Assembly: GCA_044450345.1 (NCBI GenBank)
Contig: JBIOIY010000056.1
Location: 1 to 19,468 of the forward strand
DNA from: Thermodesulfovibrionales bacterium
GTDB lineage: Bacteria; Nitrospirota; Thermodesulfovibrionia; Thermodesulfovibrionales; UBA6898
Direction: 5' to 3'
DNA length: 19,468 nt
The notes under the pieces were generated by a model, which did not search any database, was not told where the DNA came from, and saw nothing but the letters and a program-made list of their open reading frames with translations. The position numbers and the translations under genes are program-made. Of this stretch, positions 1,435-8,740 are shown in pieces (the first letter of the stretch is position 1; the number at the start of each line of letters is the position of its first letter).

Positions 1435-2619
1435 ATGAAAAGCTTAGTCATTCTGGCAACAATTATGATAGCTTTGGTTATGATGCCGGTCATGGCGGTT
1501 GCCCAGCCTACTCAGCCCGGAACGGCCACTCCCCCGCTTTCACAGCCCCTGGTAAGGGAAGGCACTTTTGCAACCAAGCTTGCCGATGCCCTGAAGGTGG
1601 GGCCGGCCACAAACGAGGCTGAGGCCGAGCGTTCGTTAAGCGCGGTCGGTATAGCCCCGAAGAACGGCTGGATCGCTGATTACCCGGTGACGCCGGATAT
1701 CGCTGGTGAATTGCAGACTTCTATCGCCGATGCTGCAGTTGCAGGCAGAATATCATTAAAAAAGGATGCTGCAACGAAGACTTTCCAGGATGTGATGACC
1801 TCGTACAATCTGTCTGCAGCGCCGGGAATTTCAGACCTTGCTGCAAACGAGGCGTCTGCCCCGGCATATCCCGAATCTGAAGTCATAAACAACTACTACT
1901 ACGAAGAGGGGCCTCCTGTGGTTACCTATTATGCCCCGCCGCCGGATTATGCATACCTGTATAGCTGGGTACCTTATCCGTTTTGGGGGTGGGATTTCTG
2001 GTTCCCGGGCTTCTTTGTGTTGGGGGACTTTGATATAGGGTTCCGCGGGCACCATGGGCATGGGGATCATCACGGACATGGAGACAGGGAGTTTATCAGC
2101 AACCACTTCCGTGACCCCTCAACCGGCAGGATGTCGCGTATCGACCCCGCAAATAGGGCCCACGGCGGGACTTTTGCGGACAGGGGAGGCACTAGAGGAT
2201 GGACGAGTCCTTCTGCTAGGAGCAGTGCACAATCTATTGTGACAAACAGCAGGACCTTTGCATCGGCAAGGGTGAACTCTGCAAATGGGATTGCCCGTCC
2301 TACTTCCCTTAGCATGGCTTCTGTTTCAACTGCCGGCAAAAGGGCAGCAACCGGGGCAAGGACGTATGGGGGTTCAAACCTCAACAGCGCCAGGTCTTTT
2401 TCCGGACAGAGCAGGACTTTCAGCAGGCCTGCATACAGGACACAAGGTAATTTCACCCCGTCCATGGGAGGCAGGTCCTTTGTTTCGCCTTCCGGCGGGT
2501 CGAGATCGTTCAGCGCTCCTTCCGCCGGAGGGAGGTCAGGCGGCGCCTTTGGCGGGATGAGGGGCTCCTTTAGCGCCGGTGGAAGAGGTGGAGGTTCCTT
2601 TGGCCGCTCGAGGCGTTAA
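1435..2619 (+). CDS. Secreted hypothetical protein, paralog 1 (conserved N-domain, His-rich patch, Gly/Ser/Arg tail)
   Basis: Start moved to ATG 1435 (GAGGTGGAG RBS; MKSLVILATIMIALVMMPVMAVA signal peptide). Strong identity to 2652..3530 (PPLSQ.LVREGT.AT.LAD.LK.GP, GIAP.NGWIADYPVTPDIAGEL, EGPPVVTYYAPP.DYAY.Y.WV). Confidence 0.88.
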   Translation: MKSLVILATIMIALVMMPVMAVAQPTQPGTATPPLSQPLVREGTFATKLADALKVGPATNEAEAERSLSAVGIAPKNGWIADYPVTPDIAGELQTSIADAAVAGRISLKKDAATKTFQDVMTSYNLSAAPGISDLAANEASAPAYPESEVINNYYYEEGPPVVTYYAPPPDYAYLYSWVPYPFWGWDFWFPGFFVLGDFDIGFRGHHGHGDHHGHGDREFISNHFRDPSTGRMSRIDPANRAHGGTFADRGGTRGWTSPSARSSAQSIVTNSRTFASARVNSANGIARPTSLSMASVSTAGKRAATGARTYGGSNLNSARSFSGQSRTFSRPAYRTQGNFTPSMGGRSFVSPSGGSRSFSAPSAGGRSGGAFGGMRGSFSAGGRGGGSFGRSRR

Positions 2620-3536: not shown

Positions 3537-5609
3537 TTAATCGTCAGCAGGATAGCCCGTTTTTTGAGGCGCACCATGGTCTTCTTCGCAGGCGGAACCG
3601 TTGCCGTCCCACATGAGGACGCAGTCCCTTCCTTTCATCTTTGCCTTGTACAGCGCCCTGTCAGCGCATCTGATAAGATGGTCCTTCAGTCCGCCGCAGT
3701 CCGGGAACATCGAGATTCCCGCACTTATCGTAATCTGCTTTGCCGGGAACCTCTTCCATGCCAGCTGTATCTGGTCCCTGATGTTCTTCATTATCCTCTC
3801 CGCCACCCCTAGTGCCTCTGCCTTCGATGTCTGCGGCATCAGGATTACGAATTCGTCCCCCCCGAACCTTACGAGTATGTCGTTAGCCCTCACCGCGGCA
3901 GACATGATCGAGGCGACCTCCTTCAGGATATAATCCCCGGCCAGATGGCCCTCGGCGTCATTGAAGAGCTTGAAGATGTCGATGTCCATTATCACGAGGG
4001 ACATAGGGAGAGCGTACCGCCTTGCCCGCCGGGATTCTTCATCGAGGCGGATATTGAAGTATCGCCTGTTAAAAAGACCGGTGAGCGGATCAGTTATGGA
4101 AAGCTCCCTCATCTGTTCCGACCTCTCGTGATAGTCGCAGAGCCTCAGGAGGACGGATGCCTGAGAAACAAAGCCGGCAAGGGTACTGATGTCCTTTTCC
4201 GAAAAAGGCTCGCCAGAGTACTTGTCCGAGAGGTTCAGGACCCCTATCGTCTCATCCGCCACCTTCAGCGGTAAGCTGATCGATGAGGGCGTCCTATAAT
4301 GGGATTTAACTGCAGACGTATACTCCAAGATCACCTCTTCGCGGTCGGTGAGGACCGGCTCTCCCGTTTCATAGACCCTTCCTGCAATGCCCTCACCAGG
4401 TCTCACCCTCACGCTTCCCATAAGCCACCGGTTGATGCCTTTCGAGGCAAAGACCCGGAGCGTCTTCTCGTCGTATTCCGGCATCATGAGAGAGCATTTC
4501 TCAGCGCCAACGAGCTCAGATGCCTCACTGACGATGCCTTCATAGAGGCGTTCAGGCTCCCTGAAGTGAGAATAGAGGCTGAATATCCTGTTCGAGACCT
4601 GTCCCAGCGATACGGCTTTTCTTTCGTAGTCCTCCTTCTGCTGCCTTATGCCGCAGAGGTAAGATGAGAGCATGCAGAGTTCCTGCACCGCATTGAACGC
4701 CTCCTTGTCAAGAAGGGTGTTAAAGACGCCGAGGAACCCGAACGAGCCGAACGCGGAAGACAGGGGAAAGAGATACATCGATACGACCTCTTCCGGAAAG
4801 CCGCTGTACCAAAGCTCGTGCCCGTCAAGGACTGCGGCGGGTCTGCCGGACGCCGACGCCTGGGAAAAGAATTGGTTATCTTTTGAAAGGTCGATCTGCT
4901 GAATCAGGCCGCTCTGCCTGCCGGCCGCAACTTCGGGGATAAAGGATTCGTTTCCCTTCGAAAAGACCGCGGCTGTATCCACATTGAACAGGAAAATGAC
5001 CGCGTCGACGATTGTCCGGTAAATGTCCTTTATCAGGGTGTCCGAGTTCATGTTCGCCATGAGACTCACAATCGTCCTTGAGCATCTCCATTTCCTGCTC
5101 AGCTCGTCTTTCTCATGGCCCGATGAGATCAGATTCTCTATAAGAGAATGGATACTTTGCAGCCTGCCTGTCATCTGCTCGGAAGGGATGACCGTGATCT
5201 CCTTCAGCCAGCCTTCCATTCCCTTCCTCTCAAGGCCGAACTTGCCGGCGCTTCGCACATAAAACATCTTGAAATCCTCGGCAGACGCATAAAACGCCTC
5301 CGCAGTTGCCACCAGTCTCAGGTCTTTGTAATTAATCGGCAGAACAACGAGATGCTGCATTGTATAAGGCTGGATAATAAACGGGTTGCTCCTCTTCAGC
5401 GAGAGTCCGAGTTGTTCTTCGATGAAGCTGTCGTATAGTTTCTGTCCGTTCTTGTCCGACTTTAGAAACGACAGGAGTGCGTCCTCCTTAACAGGCGATA
5501 TGAGCCGGTTCAGTCTGTCGTCATATAACGAGTAGTGAAGCCCCGTAAGCACCGAGAGGGACTCGAATGCCTTTGTCAGGGACTGCACGTCAAGAAAACG
5601 GTACCCCAT
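3537..5609 (-). CDS. Diguanylate cyclase: PocR-like N-domain, two GAF-like domains, GGDEF
   Basis: Start ATG 5609 with GGAGG RBS. TDPLTGLFNRRYF, DID.FK.FND..GH..GD, RAND I-site, RFGGDEF. GAF signature GEGIAGRV...SLPLKVADETIGVLNLSDK..FSEKD. Confidence 0.93.
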   Translation of the reverse strand: MGYRFLDVQSLTKAFESLSVLTGLHYSLYDDRLNRLISPVKEDALLSFLKSDKNGQKLYDSFIEEQLGLSLKRSNPFIIQPYTMQHLVVLPINYKDLRLVATAEAFYASAEDFKMFYVRSAGKFGLERKGMEGWLKEITVIPSEQMTGRLQSIHSLIENLISSGHEKDELSRKWRCSRTIVSLMANMNSDTLIKDIYRTIVDAVIFLFNVDTAAVFSKGNESFIPEVAAGRQSGLIQQIDLSKDNQFFSQASASGRPAAVLDGHELWYSGFPEEVVSMYLFPLSSAFGSFGFLGVFNTLLDKEAFNAVQELCMLSSYLCGIRQQKEDYERKAVSLGQVSNRIFSLYSHFREPERLYEGIVSEASELVGAEKCSLMMPEYDEKTLRVFASKGINRWLMGSVRVRPGEGIAGRVYETGEPVLTDREEVILEYTSAVKSHYRTPSSISLPLKVADETIGVLNLSDKYSGEPFSEKDISTLAGFVSQASVLLRLCDYHERSEQMRELSITDPLTGLFNRRYFNIRLDEESRRARRYALPMSLVIMDIDIFKLFNDAEGHLAGDYILKEVASIMSAAVRANDILVRFGGDEFVILMPQTSKAEALGVAERIMKNIRDQIQLAWKRFPAKQITISAGISMFPDCGGLKDHLIRCADRALYKAKMKGRDCVLMWDGNGSACEEDHGAPQKTGYPADD

Positions 5610-5751
5610 AGCTTGCCCTCCTGCAAGAGCTACACTTGAATAAAATGCATGTAAAAACCCGACTGCCCACACATAAGCAAGCCTCCCGCCGTAGCGGCGC
5701 AATAAAAAGAACTCGATTATTCAGTCCGCAGGCCCCCCCGGGTCGCTACTA

Positions 5752-5776: not shown

Positions 5777-5952
5777 CCTCAACAGAATTCTTGCCTGAGG
5801 TGATACGGATGCAGGCCGACGTGCCGGCGCGGCCGCGCAAAGCCGATCTCATTGCCTTGACGACGCCTTGAAACCCGCTAATATGTAATTATGACAAAGA
5901 GGCGCCGGGATTCTTGCTTTGCCGCCGGACTATCAACTAAGGACACCCAACT

Positions 5953-6063
5953 ATGTGGATAGTCAGGCTTGCGCTGCGGAGGCCTTACACGATTGCAGTC
6001 ATGGCGCTCCTGATCCTTGTACTCGGGACTCTTTCGGCCACCCGGATGATAAATTGCGCTTGA
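5953..6063 (+). pseudogene. 36-aa ORF matching the N-terminus (TM1) of an AcrB/CusA-family RND permease; remnant or small membrane protein
   Basis: AAGGA RBS then ATG 5953: MWIVRLALRRPYTIAVMALLILVLGTLSATRMINCA*. This closely resembles the MWIVRLALRRP...RMPVDIFP start of RND permeases, with similarity lost after RM. Confidence 0.8.
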
Positions 6064-6082
6064 ACCGTCAATGTCTTAGAAT
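6054..6082 (+). promoter_or_regulatory. Putative sigma70 promoter giving a leaderless arsS mRNA
   Basis: TTGCGC-17 bp-TAGAAT, with the -10 ending 7 nt before ATG 6090. No SD sequence upstream of that ATG. Confidence 0.5.
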
Positions 6083-6089
6083 AAATGCC

Positions 6090-7055
6090 ATGGAGAATGG
6101 CGCCGGCTTCGGAGACAGGATAAGGGATATACAACCCGCGGCCCTTTCGGCGATCGATATCTCTATCCTCCAGGTGAACCTCGGCTACAGATGCAATATG
6201 GCCTGCGCACATTGCCACGTCGATGCACGGCCCGACAGGGACCAGATAATGGGGGAGGAGACGATCGAGGCCGTCATTGAAGTCTTGAAGGACAACGATA
6301 TCAGGACGCTCGATATCACAGGCGGTGCCCCCGAGATGAACCCCCATTTTGCCCATCTCGTCAAAAAGGCCAGAGAGGCGGGACACCGTGTCATTGTCCG
6401 CACAAACCTCACCATATTTTTTGAAGAGGGCATGGAACGCCTCCCGGAATTCATGAGTGAGAACTCGGTCAGGGTCATCGCATCCATGCCTTGTTATACA
6501 GAGGACAACGTAGACCGCGCAAGAGGGAAAGGGACTTTTAAGAAATGCGCAAAGGCCCTCGCCATGCTGAACAGCTTCGGATATGGAAACGGTTCTGCTG
6601 ATAAGGGACTGGACCTCGTATATAACCCCTCAGGTCCATTTTTGGCGCCTCCTCAAAAGGCTTTGGAAGAAGACTACAGAAGAGAGTTGAAGAGGAATTA
6701 CGGAATAACGTTCGACAGTCTGTATGCGTTTACGAACATGCCGATAGGCAGGTTCAGGGACTTGCTTGTAAAGACCGGCCGCCTGGAAAAGTATAGTGAA
6801 TACCTCATCTCCGCCTTTAACCCCGAAAACCTCAAGGGCCTTATGTGCAGAAAGCTCCTGAGCATTGGATGGGACGGACGGCTGTACGACTGCGATTTCA
6901 ACCAGATGCTCAACGTCCCGGTGCATCCGCATTTCCCGCAGCACATTAAGGAATTCGACTACTCACGTCTTAAGAACAGGCCTATCGCAGTCGGCGACCA
7001 CTGCTACGCCTGCACCGCAGGACAGGGCTCCACCTGAATAGGCGCAATCGCCTGA
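6090..7055 (+). CDS. arsS: Radical SAM/Cys-rich (seleno)protein of the ArsS family (DUF3641 C-terminus); UGA 7035-7037 read as Sec
   Basis: LQVNLGYRCNMACAHCHVDA (CxxxCxxC), LDITGGAPEMNP, LVYNP.G.FL.PPQ..LE..Y, GLMCR, LYDCDFNQML, HCYACTAGQGST-TGA-IGAIA-TGA. Family members end CTAG.GSSCGGAL. Start set at ATG 6090. Confidence 0.9.
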
Positions 7056-7080
7056 CAGGCAGTTTGCCTGTATCGCGCTT
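7040..7080 (+). promoter_or_regulatory. Putative bacterial SECIS element
   Basis: Upper stem ACAGGCA/TGCCTGT (7055-7061/7065-7071) with a G-initiated GTT loop 24 nt after the UGA. Lower stem AGGCGC/GCGCTT (7040-7045/7075-7080). Confidence 0.7.
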
Positions 7081-7148
7081 AGAGTAATTTATATCTATAC
7101 ACTTCGCGGTGCATGCTGCGGGCCTCTTAACACCAATAATTCACACGC

Positions 7149-7272
7149 AGCACGAGGAGACCATCTTCTCTCTCATTCTCGTCCCGATGAATCGGGGCTC
7201 CGAGGCAATTTCTCCAAAAATATTCTGTTTGTTGGAGAAATTAAAACCGTTCCAAGATAGTCACCTCCTGCT
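7149..7272 (-). repeat. Structured intergenic element, copy A (three-way junction)
   Basis: Closing stem 7149-7167/7254-7272, stem AATTTCTCCAA/TTGGAGAAATT (7207-7217/7232-7242), and CTCG..CGAG stem capped by TCCCGATGAATCGGGG. Homologous to the reverse complement of 7317-7446. Confidence 0.8.
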
Positions 7273-7316
7273 TCTGCGCCATGACAAGCAGGAAGTTTTA
7301 TGAATAATTTGGACTC

Positions 7317-7446
7317 AGGATTGAGAGGGAACTGTCTTAGAGCGGCTTCAATTTCTCGTATTGCCCGACGCAGGAGGGGGAGAAATTGCCTCGGAGGTCG
7401 CCGCGGCGACCGAGAATGAGCGAAAAGATGGTTTCCTCTCAATCCT
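7317..7446 (+). repeat. Structured intergenic element, copy B (inverted relative to A)
   Basis: 22-bp closing stem 7317-7338/7425-7446 (3 G-U pairs), CAATTTCTC/GAGAAATTG (7349-7357/7380-7388), CTCG/CGAG stem capped by GGTCGCCGCGGCGACC. Confidence 0.8.
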
Positions 7447-7469
7447 TTCCTGGAAATGATAGCCGAATT

Positions 7470-7478
7470 TGCTATAAT
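7470..7478 (+). promoter_or_regulatory. Extended -10 promoter of the ABC exporter operon
   Basis: TGCTATAAT (TGnTATAAT) 44 nt upstream of ATG 7523. AAGGAG RBS at 7508-7513. Confidence 0.65.
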
Positions 7479-7522
7479 GGTGAGATCCGTTTTTCAACAA
7501 CGAACTTAAGGAGTCTTGTGAA

Positions 7523-8740
7523 ATGGGGAATGAAGACCTCTCGAAACTGAAGATAGACAAGTCCGAGGCCGTTGTAGGGCCTAAGAAACAGAAGAAACTC
7601 TTCCGTGCGGTCGCTGCCCTGGCGGTCTTCCTCCTTTTGGTCGTCCTTTATATAAACGGCGTATTCACCCCTGCCGTGAAGGTTGAGACCGCATCCGTAA
7701 CGCAGACATATCCTTCCCAGGCCTTCACCCTCCTGAACGCAAGCGGCTACGTGGTTGCCCAGCGCAAGGCGGCCATAGCATCGAAGGCAACCGGCCGGCT
7801 GGTCTCGCTTTCAGTGGAAGAAGGCAGCAGGGTAAAAAAGGGCGATATAGTCGCCAGGCTCGAAAGCGAAGACGTGATCGCCTTGAAGGAACAGGCAGCG
7901 GAAAATCTGAATGCGGCGAAGGCGGGTCTCGAACAGGCGAAGGCCGAGCTCCATGACGCGACGCTGCAATTCAACAGGAGCAGGGAACTGTTCGGAAAGG
8001 GCTTTATCTCCCGGACCGATTTGGATACTGCGGAAGCGCGCTATAAAAAAGCTGTCGCCGGAGTTGCAAGTGCCGAAGCGACTATCAAGGCGAATAAGGC
8101 GGCGCTTCAGGGCGCCAACGCCGCGGTAGAGTACACGCTTATCCGTGCACCCTTCGATGCCGTTGTCCTGACAAAGGACGCCGACATCGGAGATATGGTC
8201 ACCCCGTTCGGGGCGGCCGCAAACGCAAAGGCGGCTGTCGTCACGATCGCAGATATGGGCTCTCTCCAGGTAGAGGTCGATGTCTCCGAGTCTAATATCG
8301 AGAAGGTAAAGAAGGAGCAGCCCTGCGAGATACAGCTCGACGCGTTTCCCGAGGCGCGTTTTCGGGGTGCGGTACATATGATCGTGCCAACGGCCGACAG
8401 GACTAAGGCGACTGTGCTCGTGAAGGTCGCTTTCCTGGACAAGGACGTCCGCATACTTCCGGAGATGTCGGCGAAGGTGTCTTTCCTCGAAAGGCCGGTT
8501 GCAGCGGCCGAAGAAAGCCCCCACACCGCGATAAACCCTTCGGCAATAGTCACGAAGGACGGCAGGAAGTTCGTGTTCCTTATTAAAGACGGGCGTGTCA
8601 TCGAGGCATCGATAACTACAGGCCGGCAGATTGGAGACATGACAGAGGTCACGGCAGGGCTTAAGACGGGAGACAAGATAGTCCTGAAACCCTCCGGTAA
8701 ATTAAAGACCGGCTCCAAGATAAAAGTTGCGGAGCAGTAG
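7523..8740 (+). CDS. Efflux periplasmic adaptor / membrane fusion protein (HlyD/MacA-like)
   Basis: N-terminal TM, LNASGYVVAQRKA, V.EGSRVKKGDIVARL lipoyl half, coiled-coil hairpin, IRAPFD, VEVDVSE, LPEMSAKV. Confidence 0.95.
   Translation: MGNEDLSKLKIDKSEAVVGPKKQKKLFRAVAALAVFLLLVVLYINGVFTPAVKVETASVTQTYPSQAFTLLNASGYVVAQRKAAIASKATGRLVSLSVEEGSRVKKGDIVARLESEDVIALKEQAAENLNAAKAGLEQAKAELHDATLQFNRSRELFGKGFISRTDLDTAEARYKKAVAGVASAEATIKANKAALQGANAAVEYTLIRAPFDAVVLTKDADIGDMVTPFGAAANAKAAVVTIADMGSLQVEVDVSESNIEKVKKEQPCEIQLDAFPEARFRGAVHMIVPTADRTKATVLVKVAFLDKDVRILPEMSAKVSFLERPVAAAEESPHTAINPSAIVTKDGRKFVFLIKDGRVIEASITTGRQIGDMTEVTAGLKTGDKIVLKPSGKLKTGSKIKVAEQ

Follow-up and report, generated by a model that had tools for sequence, protein, structure and literature searches.

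What are the two folded stretches that lie head to head in a single gene spacer of this Thermodesulfovibrionales bacterium, and in which form, as DNA or as RNA, is their shape maintained? The window analysed here, that is, the whole stretch of 19,468 nucleotides of contig JBIOIY010000056.1, contains a gap of 485 nt that is bordered by a radical-SAM/DUF3641 gene (5919-7037) on one side and, from 7523 onwards, by a HlyD/ABC/FtsX efflux operon on the other, and both stretches are located in this gap. A sequence-only reading of the window had taken them for two copies of one structured element and had suggested that this might be either an undescribed RNA motif or a non-autonomous mobile repeat.

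The two copies and their shared architecture

Copy A (7149-7272, minus strand) and copy B (7317-7446, plus strand) were found to have one three-way-junction architecture, as had been proposed, and the covariance model described below also placed A on the minus and B on the plus strand. The two core blocks said to be identical could be recovered: an 18-nt block, GGAGAAATTGCCTCGGAG, is present as the reverse complement of 7198-7215 in A and in forward orientation at 7379-7396 in B, and a 10-nt block, CGAGAATGAG, as the reverse complement of 7172-7181 in A and forward at 7411-7420 in B. Alignment and folding further agreed with the reading that the distal hairpins of A and B are unlike in sequence and have retained their pairing.

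The structured part of copy A (7149..7272, minus) is defined by its fold, by alignment and by a model match at 7140-7280 of the minus strand (98.1 bits). It consists of the closing helix P1 (7272-7254 with 7167-7149), the junction strand J1/2 (7253-7244), the helices P2 (7243-7206) and P3 (7204-7178), and the junction strand J3/1 (7177-7168). The corresponding part of copy B (7317..7446, plus), based on alignment and a model match at 7312-7452 of the plus strand (112.2 bits), comprises P1 (7317-7338 with 7424-7446), J1/2 with GAGCGGCTT (7340-7348), P2 (7349-7388), a P3 made up of the base CCTCGGAG (7389-7396), a hairpin (7397-7410) and CGAG (7411-7414), and finally J3/1 with AATGAGCGA (7415-7423).

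When folded alone, each copy formed a closing stem and two hairpins, with -47.2 kcal/mol for A (z -4.35) and -61.5 kcal/mol for B (z -5.08), and none of 200 shuffles equalled either value. It should be noted that the opposite strands of A and B also gave good folds (z -4.87 and -4.76, respectively), as near-palindromes generally do. In a single plus-strand RNA of 7136-7456, A was predicted to pair with B in one long hairpin of -146.8 kcal/mol, compared with -41.8 and -61.5 kcal/mol for the parts alone.

Based on its own sequence and on a pattern of terminal inverted repeats (TIRs) obtained from relatives, copy A could be extended to a full element with TIR-like ends at 7131..7313 (minus). Its 3' end, CACCAATAATTCAC in plus-strand reading, is located at 7131-7144 and its 5' end, ATGAATAATTTGGA, at 7300-7313; the pattern from relatives matches copy A at 7296-7313 of the minus strand with no more than four mismatches. 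The 4-mers that flank this element, TTAA (7127-7130) and CTCA (7314-7317), do not form a duplication. A separate TIR is missing on the 5' side of copy B, where the 5' end of A lies 3 nt from the P1 of B, and the spacer between the 5' ends of the two copies (7273..7316) is mostly the 5' extension of A. A sigma-70-like site, ATGACA-16-AATAAT (7281-7308, plus), is present in this spacer and points into B. Another promoter-like site, TGGAAA-16-TATAAT with a TG (7451..7478, plus), lies outside the element and is that of the efflux operon; its TATAAT stretch is retained in two relatives, G004 and G006, and the G006 locus is devoid of the element. In the contigs of four DNA runs, the locus was represented by repeat pile-ups and by one contig with 7113-7441 inverted, and no clean empty site for it was found among these contigs.

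A widespread family with one conserved fold

The number of copies was examined in the own assembly (3.19 Mb, 86 contigs) by several methods. A BLAST-type search returned 36 matches, and nhmmer with an HMM built from 26 copies identified 34 full-length copies at E < 1e-7 plus fragments. A search for further copies with a covariance model (R1; 141 positions and 34 pairs), as the sequence-only reading had advised, yielded 36 matches of 118-195 nt in this genome; of 41 related genomes from the same order, 26 contained a match. The same-genus counts obtained with the model were at least 77, 6, 0, 40, 0, 36 and 1, the high counts per genome being lower bounds (at least 77 in G001). The reading had also named a local inverted duplication as the plain alternative, which is not supported: A and B are members of a family of dozens and are unlike each other in P2 and P3. 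Several other possibilities were rejected. Partial matches in the own genome were fragments with no gene between the halves, which speaks against split copies; a BLAST comparison of the 300-nt flanks of the 34 copies revealed only two self-overlapping pairs and three short unrelated repeats, and hence no larger conserved unit; and none of seven pattern matches in viral contigs fitted the model.

The occurrence of the element is not restricted to this order. An exact-pattern scan with one genome per species retrieved at least 129 stretches, most of them in metagenome-assembled genomes (MAGs) of Nitrospirota/Thermodesulfovibrionales, and the other labels among the scan matches listed were Planctomycetota, Gemmatimonadetes, Latescibacterota, Saccharibacteria, Parcubacteria, Desulfobacterales and Elusimicrobiales. 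When the first 100 of these at least 129 loci were scored, the model matched in nearly all of them (98 matches), with a G+C content ranging from 0.34 to 0.70 and with entirely different helices. Whole-genome model counts in five MAGs of other phyla were at least 111 (Planctomycetota), 45 (Gemmatimonadetes), 5 (a 0.5-Mb Parcubacteria MAG), 1 and 5. Some of the single MAG matches may be binning errors; the multicopy matches cannot be.

The suggestion that the motif is undescribed held up in the databases searched. Rfam 15 had no match in the window at gathering score and none in 7030-7530 at E values up to 10, and in 14 copy-bearing loci from six phyla its only match was a neighbouring tRNA. Among the passages retrieved by a full-text literature search, no paper on this element was found.

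The consensus of the 34 aligned copies reads: variable P1, UGAGCGGCUUC, P2, G, CCUCGGAG-[hairpin]-CGAG, AAUGAGCGAAA and P1', in which the base of P3, CCUCGGAG...CGAG, is invariant. That the structure is conserved through covarying stems could be substantiated with a MAFFT alignment of these copies and a hand-written structure: 90.0% of 1150 stem cells pair, compared with 69.3% after shuffling and 39-49% with slid partners. Changes on both sides were observed in 30 of the 34 pairs, the covariation score was reached by no shuffle, and RNAalifold recovered the same helices from the alignment. In the cross-phylum alignment, which was fitted by the model and is therefore biased to the structure, 90.6% of cells pair (42-47% with slid partners). 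P3 and J3/1 of that alignment are fixed by the search pattern and J1/2 is free; the J1/2 sequence GAGCGGNUU is conserved though it lies outside the pattern.

The proposal of a strand-specific fold was also strengthened, since G-U outnumbers A-C by 90 to 27 in the stems of the 34 copies on the named strand and by 184 to 44 in a further count. This excess marks the strand given in the sequence-only reading as the folded one. The junction is an irregular internal loop, with 5' GAGCGGNUU facing 3' AAUGAGCGA, that opens into the hairpins P2 and P3. Judged by sequence, the strands J1/2 (GAGCGGNUU) and J3/1 (AAUGAGCGA) could face each other in antiparallel orientation in a putative irregular helix of tandem G.A/A.G, two G-C pairs, a 3x3 loop and two U-A pairs. 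In the three or four pairs adjoining the junction, the pyrimidine is always on the 5' side, and the 5' arm has G>C in 86 of 93 copies; both observations point to a specific three-dimensional or protein contact. A coding reading of ATGCAG... was discarded on the ground that helix lengths vary out of frame.

Mobility, insertion sites and neighbouring genes

The earlier proposal of a non-autonomous mobile repeat was borne out in its MITE-like part, for which TIRs and apparent 4-bp duplications in relatives and filled and empty sites were found, and was not supported in its REPIN/RAYT/HUH part, as the abundance of Y1_Tnp genes does not track that of the element. The element is small and non-coding and has many dispersed copies. 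An alignment of 20 copies from G001 revealed shared ends beyond P1, with CCCAGAC-TATTCATAAAC as the 5' end, ATGAATAAT-ATGGG as the 3' end and CCCRGAYWATTCATAAAC as the terminal inverted repeat consensus. When up to three mismatches were allowed, this TIR pattern was counted 31 times in G011 and 19 times in G001 (2 and 0 times for the reversed control), and many of these occurrences directly adjoin model matches. Only 3, 3 and 5 occurrences were observed in G000, G004 and G006, respectively, and in the own genome a TIR-like end lies within 400 nt of only three of the 34 cores, copy A included. Most copies in this genome have lost their ends. Clean 4-bp repeats of the form YTAR, the apparent target duplications, were read at three G001 loci: CTAA/CTAA (L319), TTAG/TTAG (L308) and CTAA/CTAA (L310). 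A stricter script applied to the 20 G001 copies found both ends in five and an exact 4-bp repeat in one, the other two repeats having been read from the alignment. Taken together, the TIRs and the 4-bp duplications indicate that the element was moved as DNA by a transposase encoded elsewhere.

The source of this transposase was sought in the 41 genomes. None of the three candidate drivers examined, Y1_Tnp, RVT_1 and the IS1380 model, follows the copy number. With regard to a REPIN/RAYT or HUH driver, G001 has at least 77 copies and no Y1 gene, G004 has 40 and none, and G003 and G005 have no copies and six Y1 genes each. RVT_1 was not found in G004, G006, G010, G011, G013 and G020, which hold 16-70 copies. 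IS1380-family MITEs resemble the element in their CC(C)-starting ends and in the apparent 4-bp YTAR duplications; however, no IS1380 transposase scored high enough in the own genome (32-36 bits at best, roughly the score of an IS4 model, with a cut-off of 180), and the model exceeded this cut-off in four of the 41 relatives, none of which was the high-copy G001, G004, G006 or G011. Both core and TIR were absent from 11 loci, namely ten IS1380-model matches in relatives and the weak match in the own genome, and the one IS1380 copy with clear ends (in G020; CCTGAATCCGG..., with TTTAA on both sides) is unlike the element at its ends. Thus, the attribution of the vehicle to IS1380 is not confirmed. 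An autonomous partner with the same ends was not found among the IS1380, Y1 and RT loci examined, which is weak evidence, as MAGs often miss insertion sequences.

Presence and absence at orthologous sites were compared site by site on the basis of synteny within the genus. The site at C17:23896 is filled here and empty in G004 and G006; that at C17:27800 is filled in G004 and empty in G006; that at C17:30662 is empty in G004 and, in G006, is occupied by a copy that points the other way; and that at C17:38913 is empty in G005, where two genes overlap by ATGA. Similarly, C1:9915 is empty in G005 and G006 and retains a 5'-truncated remnant in G004, and C1:12007 is filled here and empty in relatives. 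The locus of the window has an internally deleted remnant upstream of the HlyD orthologue in G004. At C1:17876, one site with conserved flanks is occupied by three subfamilies in three species, and at C17:27800 the copies of G000 and G004 have P1 in common and are unlike in the P2 tip and P3.

The cleanest case of filled and empty sites was identified in Gemmatimonadota, where locus L264 is filled in G042 and G083 (flanks 78% alike) and unoccupied in G080 and G082. In these two genomes, the adjoining genes are connected by an 11-nt spacer that has no hairpin, which implies that P1 came with the insertion and rules out its origin from a pre-existing terminator hairpin or from an inverted target duplication. 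Between G042 and G083, P1 differs by four double compensatory changes, the outer flanks have diverged beyond recognition, and the tips of P2 and P3 have been replaced by other variants found in the genome. The compensatory changes in P1 and the decayed outer ends indicate that P1 and the junction are preserved as a structure in old copies. Copies of one genome also exchange their cores.

The MAGs of Planctomycetota and Gemmatimonadota have cores that are 86-93% alike, and P1, with 19-34 bp, is nearly perfect and unique to each copy; neither a TIR nor a target duplication was seen there. Such a combination requires either old insertions with core exchange or some other route of spreading. Homology between copies of G041 stops sharply at the P1 boundary, hairpins of at least 19 bp are scarce in 43 kb of this genome, and no empty site was found among its close relatives in 20 genomes.

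Pairs like that of the window were also examined. Among the matches listed, seven pairs with a spacing below about 150 nt were noted: that of the window, C10:25260/25480, one pair in G004 and another four in G001. All of them run minus then plus, with their 5' ends facing. The partners belong to different subfamilies and must therefore have arisen by separate insertions and not by duplication; new insertions may prefer the 5' end of a copy already present. The head-to-head arrangement of A and B is thus a recurrent way for two copies to adjoin, and most full-length copies of the own genome (30 of 34) are single.

According to a crude ORF caller, all 34 copies are intergenic. On the 3' side, 24 of them face a gene on the opposite strand, often 0-30 nt from its stop, and the remaining 10 have a same-strand gene downstream at 40-127 nt; in 26 copies, the distance to a gene boundary is shorter from the 3' end than from the 5' end. 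A weak replication-strand bias was noticed, with 22 of 34 copies on the C-rich strand. The neighbours are unrelated housekeeping genes, and none of 73 flanking ORFs at 49 loci carries a transposase, integrase or reverse-transcriptase Pfam domain. The protein of the gene next to L251 has a low-complexity tail. In the 0.5-Mb Parcubacteria MAG, one forward copy is located between rpoB and rpoC and another after rpoC. Orientation relative to genes is mixed in the Planctomycetota MAG, and eight of nine Gemmatimonadota loci are co-oriented with the next gene. A sigma-70-like site upstream is present in one of the 34 copies (B alone), compared with a shuffle mean of 1.9. This lone site, the mixed gene context and the position of the operon promoter beyond B argue that the element is neither a leader nor a stand-alone sigma-70 gene.

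Several known repeats are similar in part. The bcr1-type repeats of the Bacillus cereus group are MITE-like, and their compensatory changes point to a fold at the RNA level. The element shares both properties with bcr1 and is unlike it in sequence, fold and host range; bcr1 is not known to have a cross-phylum core. Correia/NEMIS of Neisseria, ERIC/IRU of enterobacteria and RUP/BOX of pneumococci are confined to a genus or family and have conserved ends. The element is like them in being small, non-coding, multicopy and intergenic, in having inverted-repeat ends and apparently short target duplications, in forming long hairpins if transcribed and in varying in presence between relatives. On the other hand, what is conserved here is an internal three-way junction found in at least six phyla, and the helices, including the closing one, vary. 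Relevant reviews include PMC2229807, PMC3184786 and PMC10969869.

Readings of the conserved core

On balance, our results are probably best explained by a mini-transposon (MITE) with a conserved Y-shaped cargo that is selected as a fold of one strand, probably as read-through RNA, and serves as a binding or processing module. The evidence for the MITE as vehicle is reasonably good; that the core is RNA, and what it does there, is what we infer. A transposase encoded elsewhere would move the element as DNA via its TIRs. After insertion, the ends decay, and P1 and the Y-core stay, with compensatory changes and with wobbles on one strand only; such persistence of P1 and the Y-core after the ends are lost suggests that the core is selected as a folded single strand. 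The core RNA would most likely be produced by read-through from neighbouring genes, own genes or riboswitches being unlikely, and would most likely act in transcripts as a protein-binding or processing module, in which a P1 of at least 20 bp could be the target of a double-strand RNase and the conserved loop the binding site. A finding against the RNA reading is that copies occur in both orientations to genes. In addition, G-T wobbles are tolerated in single-stranded DNA as well, and template-switch repair of quasi-palindromes could keep the arms complementary without selection, yet it gives no strand bias. There is a modest chance that the Y-core represents a functional RNA of a new class, a three-way junction with about 25 near-invariant nucleotides that either binds protein or is catalytic. 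It would have spread on MITEs through at least six phyla, including the tiny genomes of the candidate phyla radiation, and would be kept by the host at individual loci, acting there on the transcripts into which it is inserted.

Several other explanations should be considered. The Y-core could itself be the site of mobility, a folded single-stranded DNA junction that is moved or swapped by a structure-specific enzyme (a tyrosine recombinase, an HUH nuclease or another), with the TIR form of Thermodesulfovibrionia being just one vehicle. Conservation that is highest inside and lowest at the ends is the reverse of an ordinary MITE, and the strand-specific folding, the exchange of cores on fixed P1 stems, the abrupt end of homology at P1 in G041 and the head-to-head orientation of the seven close pairs noted among the listed matches would all fit such a site. 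However, Y1_Tnp does not track the element, the flanking ORFs are free of the mobility domains named above, and the empty site in G080 and G082 means that P1 arrives with the insertion, which makes this reading unlikely in our opinion. Integron attC sites are recognised by structure over sequence, are strand-specific and carry unpaired bases in an irregular helix beneath a tip that varies. The element resembles them in its strand-specific irregular fold and in its frequent position just past a gene stop on the opposite strand, but RYYYAAC/GTTRRRY boxes and R''/R' type motifs were not seen on reading, the copies are dispersed in mixed orientation without co-oriented arrays, and here it is the tip that is conserved and the outer helix that varies. 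REPs are simple hairpins of 20-40 nt that are tied to a Y1 gene and act as single strands. REP/REPIN sequences are also dispersed and palindromic and also occur as inverted pairs, whereas the unit here is a 125-nt junction that does not co-occur with Y1 genes. Judging from sequence features, the core might instead be catalytic, representing a candidate new class of self-cleaving ribozyme carried by the repeat, much as hammerheads and twisters ride on repeats elsewhere. The near-invariant nucleotides in the junction strands beside freely varying helices, the fixed Y:R orientation next to the junction, the recurrent U.G/G.U wobbles in P1, the multicopy and cross-phylum occurrence and the absence from Rfam are what such a ribozyme could look like. 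We nevertheless regard it as quite improbable, given that efficient cleavage of the message might be costly for the copy between rpoB and rpoC, that many copies are antisense to their neighbours and that, to our knowledge, a P1 of at least 20 bp is unusual among small ribozymes.

The idea that the copies are small RNA genes in their own right, or riboswitch-like cis-regulatory leaders of the genes that follow them, is suggested by copy B, which is located 77 nt upstream of the HlyD gene with a promoter-like site at its 5' end, and by the eight co-oriented copies of the nine examined in the Gemmatimonadota MAG. It is largely refuted and appears very improbable now: same-strand downstream genes and promoter-like sites are as infrequent as described above, the operon's own promoter-like site comes after B and is retained at a locus without the element, the neighbours are unrelated, and copies are gained and lost between species. 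The same low probability applies to A and B being one unit, a REPIN-like long hairpin of two inverted copies. Such a unit would account for the stability of the joint plus-strand hairpin and for the recurrence of head-to-head pairs, but it is at odds with the different subfamilies of the partners, with the predominance of single copies, with wobbles that fit separate folds on opposite strands and with an occurrence of RAYT-type genes that does not follow that of the family.

As a rule, structured bacterial repeats are bound to a lineage and conserved at their ends. In the element described here, an internal junction is conserved across phyla as distant as Nitrospirota, Planctomycetota, Gemmatimonadota, Latescibacterota and Parcubacteria. 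The number of copies can exceed 100 per genome, single loci show compensatory evolution, and Rfam 15 has no entry for the element. If it were only a tolerated hairpin, it would be an issue for annotation, since it fills many gene spacers, also inside essential operons, and will be mistaken for small RNA genes or riboswitches. Should the core, on the other hand, prove to be an RNA that has a specific partner or chemistry, it would rank among the most abundant uncatalogued RNA folds of uncultured bacteria and would clearly illustrate how a transposon can supply many transcripts with a preformed RNA module.

Genes and strain variation around the A/B pair

In the window, the two head-to-head Y-element copies (A, 7149-7272, minus strand; B, 7317-7446, plus strand) neighbour genes for a GAF-GGDEF diguanylate cyclase (3537-5702, minus strand) and a radical-SAM/DUF3641 protein (5919-7037, plus strand), and a MacA/MacB-type efflux operon, including two FtsX permease genes, lies downstream. 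In one metagenome contig (record 17 of run X3), window positions 6400-7076 were joined to 7113-7441 on the opposite strand. Judged from this junction, the corresponding strain would have either an inverted A/B block or just one B-like copy after the upstream gene.

The orthologous gap upstream of HlyD was also compared in same-genus relatives. An internally deleted Y-element remnant was found in this gap in G004 (contig C8, locus L214), in which hairpin P2 has been lost and the closing stem P1, an inserted palindrome and the joining strand J3/1 are retained, and no Y-element was present in the orthologous gap of G006.

Short repeats within and beside Y-elements

The 20-nt palindrome CCTGCCTGCCGGCAGGCAGG occurs 39 times in the own genome of the window, G000 (at most two mismatches), for example at C17:23937-23956, C1:119794-119813 and C4:61335-61354, outside the window. 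Several unrelated repeat families of this genome have it as their tip, and it is present within six of the Y-elements, at two distinct places: the CGAG of P3, and P2.

A second short repeat, in which a T run and CCGCA come after AAAGGTGGCGCAGATAAAG, adjoins several Y-element copies. It could be identified in the upstream flanks of G000 copies C1:17876, C55:6960 and C2:44304 as well as at loci L286 and L287, and is kept at the orthologous site of both G004 and G006. A different repeat, which has hairpins of its own (GTCATTGCCC...GGGCAATCC), adjoins the opposite-orientation Y-element at locus L231 (G006:C66:33570-34090) and perhaps represents a further repeat family.

Y-elements in Parcubacteria and Saccharibacteria

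In the Parcubacteria MAG G043, Y-element copies lie on both sides of rpoC on contig C16 (loci L254 and L258), one in the rpoB-rpoC spacer, oriented in sense, the other past rpoC, oriented in antisense; further Y-elements are located after groEL and ahead of the L25 gene. At locus L250 of the Saccharibacteria MAG G044 (1673-1756, minus strand), the immediate neighbours of the single Y-element of this MAG are genes for a tRNA and for a PIN-domain protein.

A promoter-like site between copies A and B

A sigma-70-like site (ATGACA-16-AATAAT, 10/12 matches) was found at window positions 7281-7308 on the plus strand, pointing outward into copy B. Such a site in front is not general in the family, as it was observed for only 1 of 34 copies. 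Because the site at 7281-7308 points outward and is partly made up of copy A's 5' terminal repeat, an outward -10 box may be carried by the end of the Y-element family.
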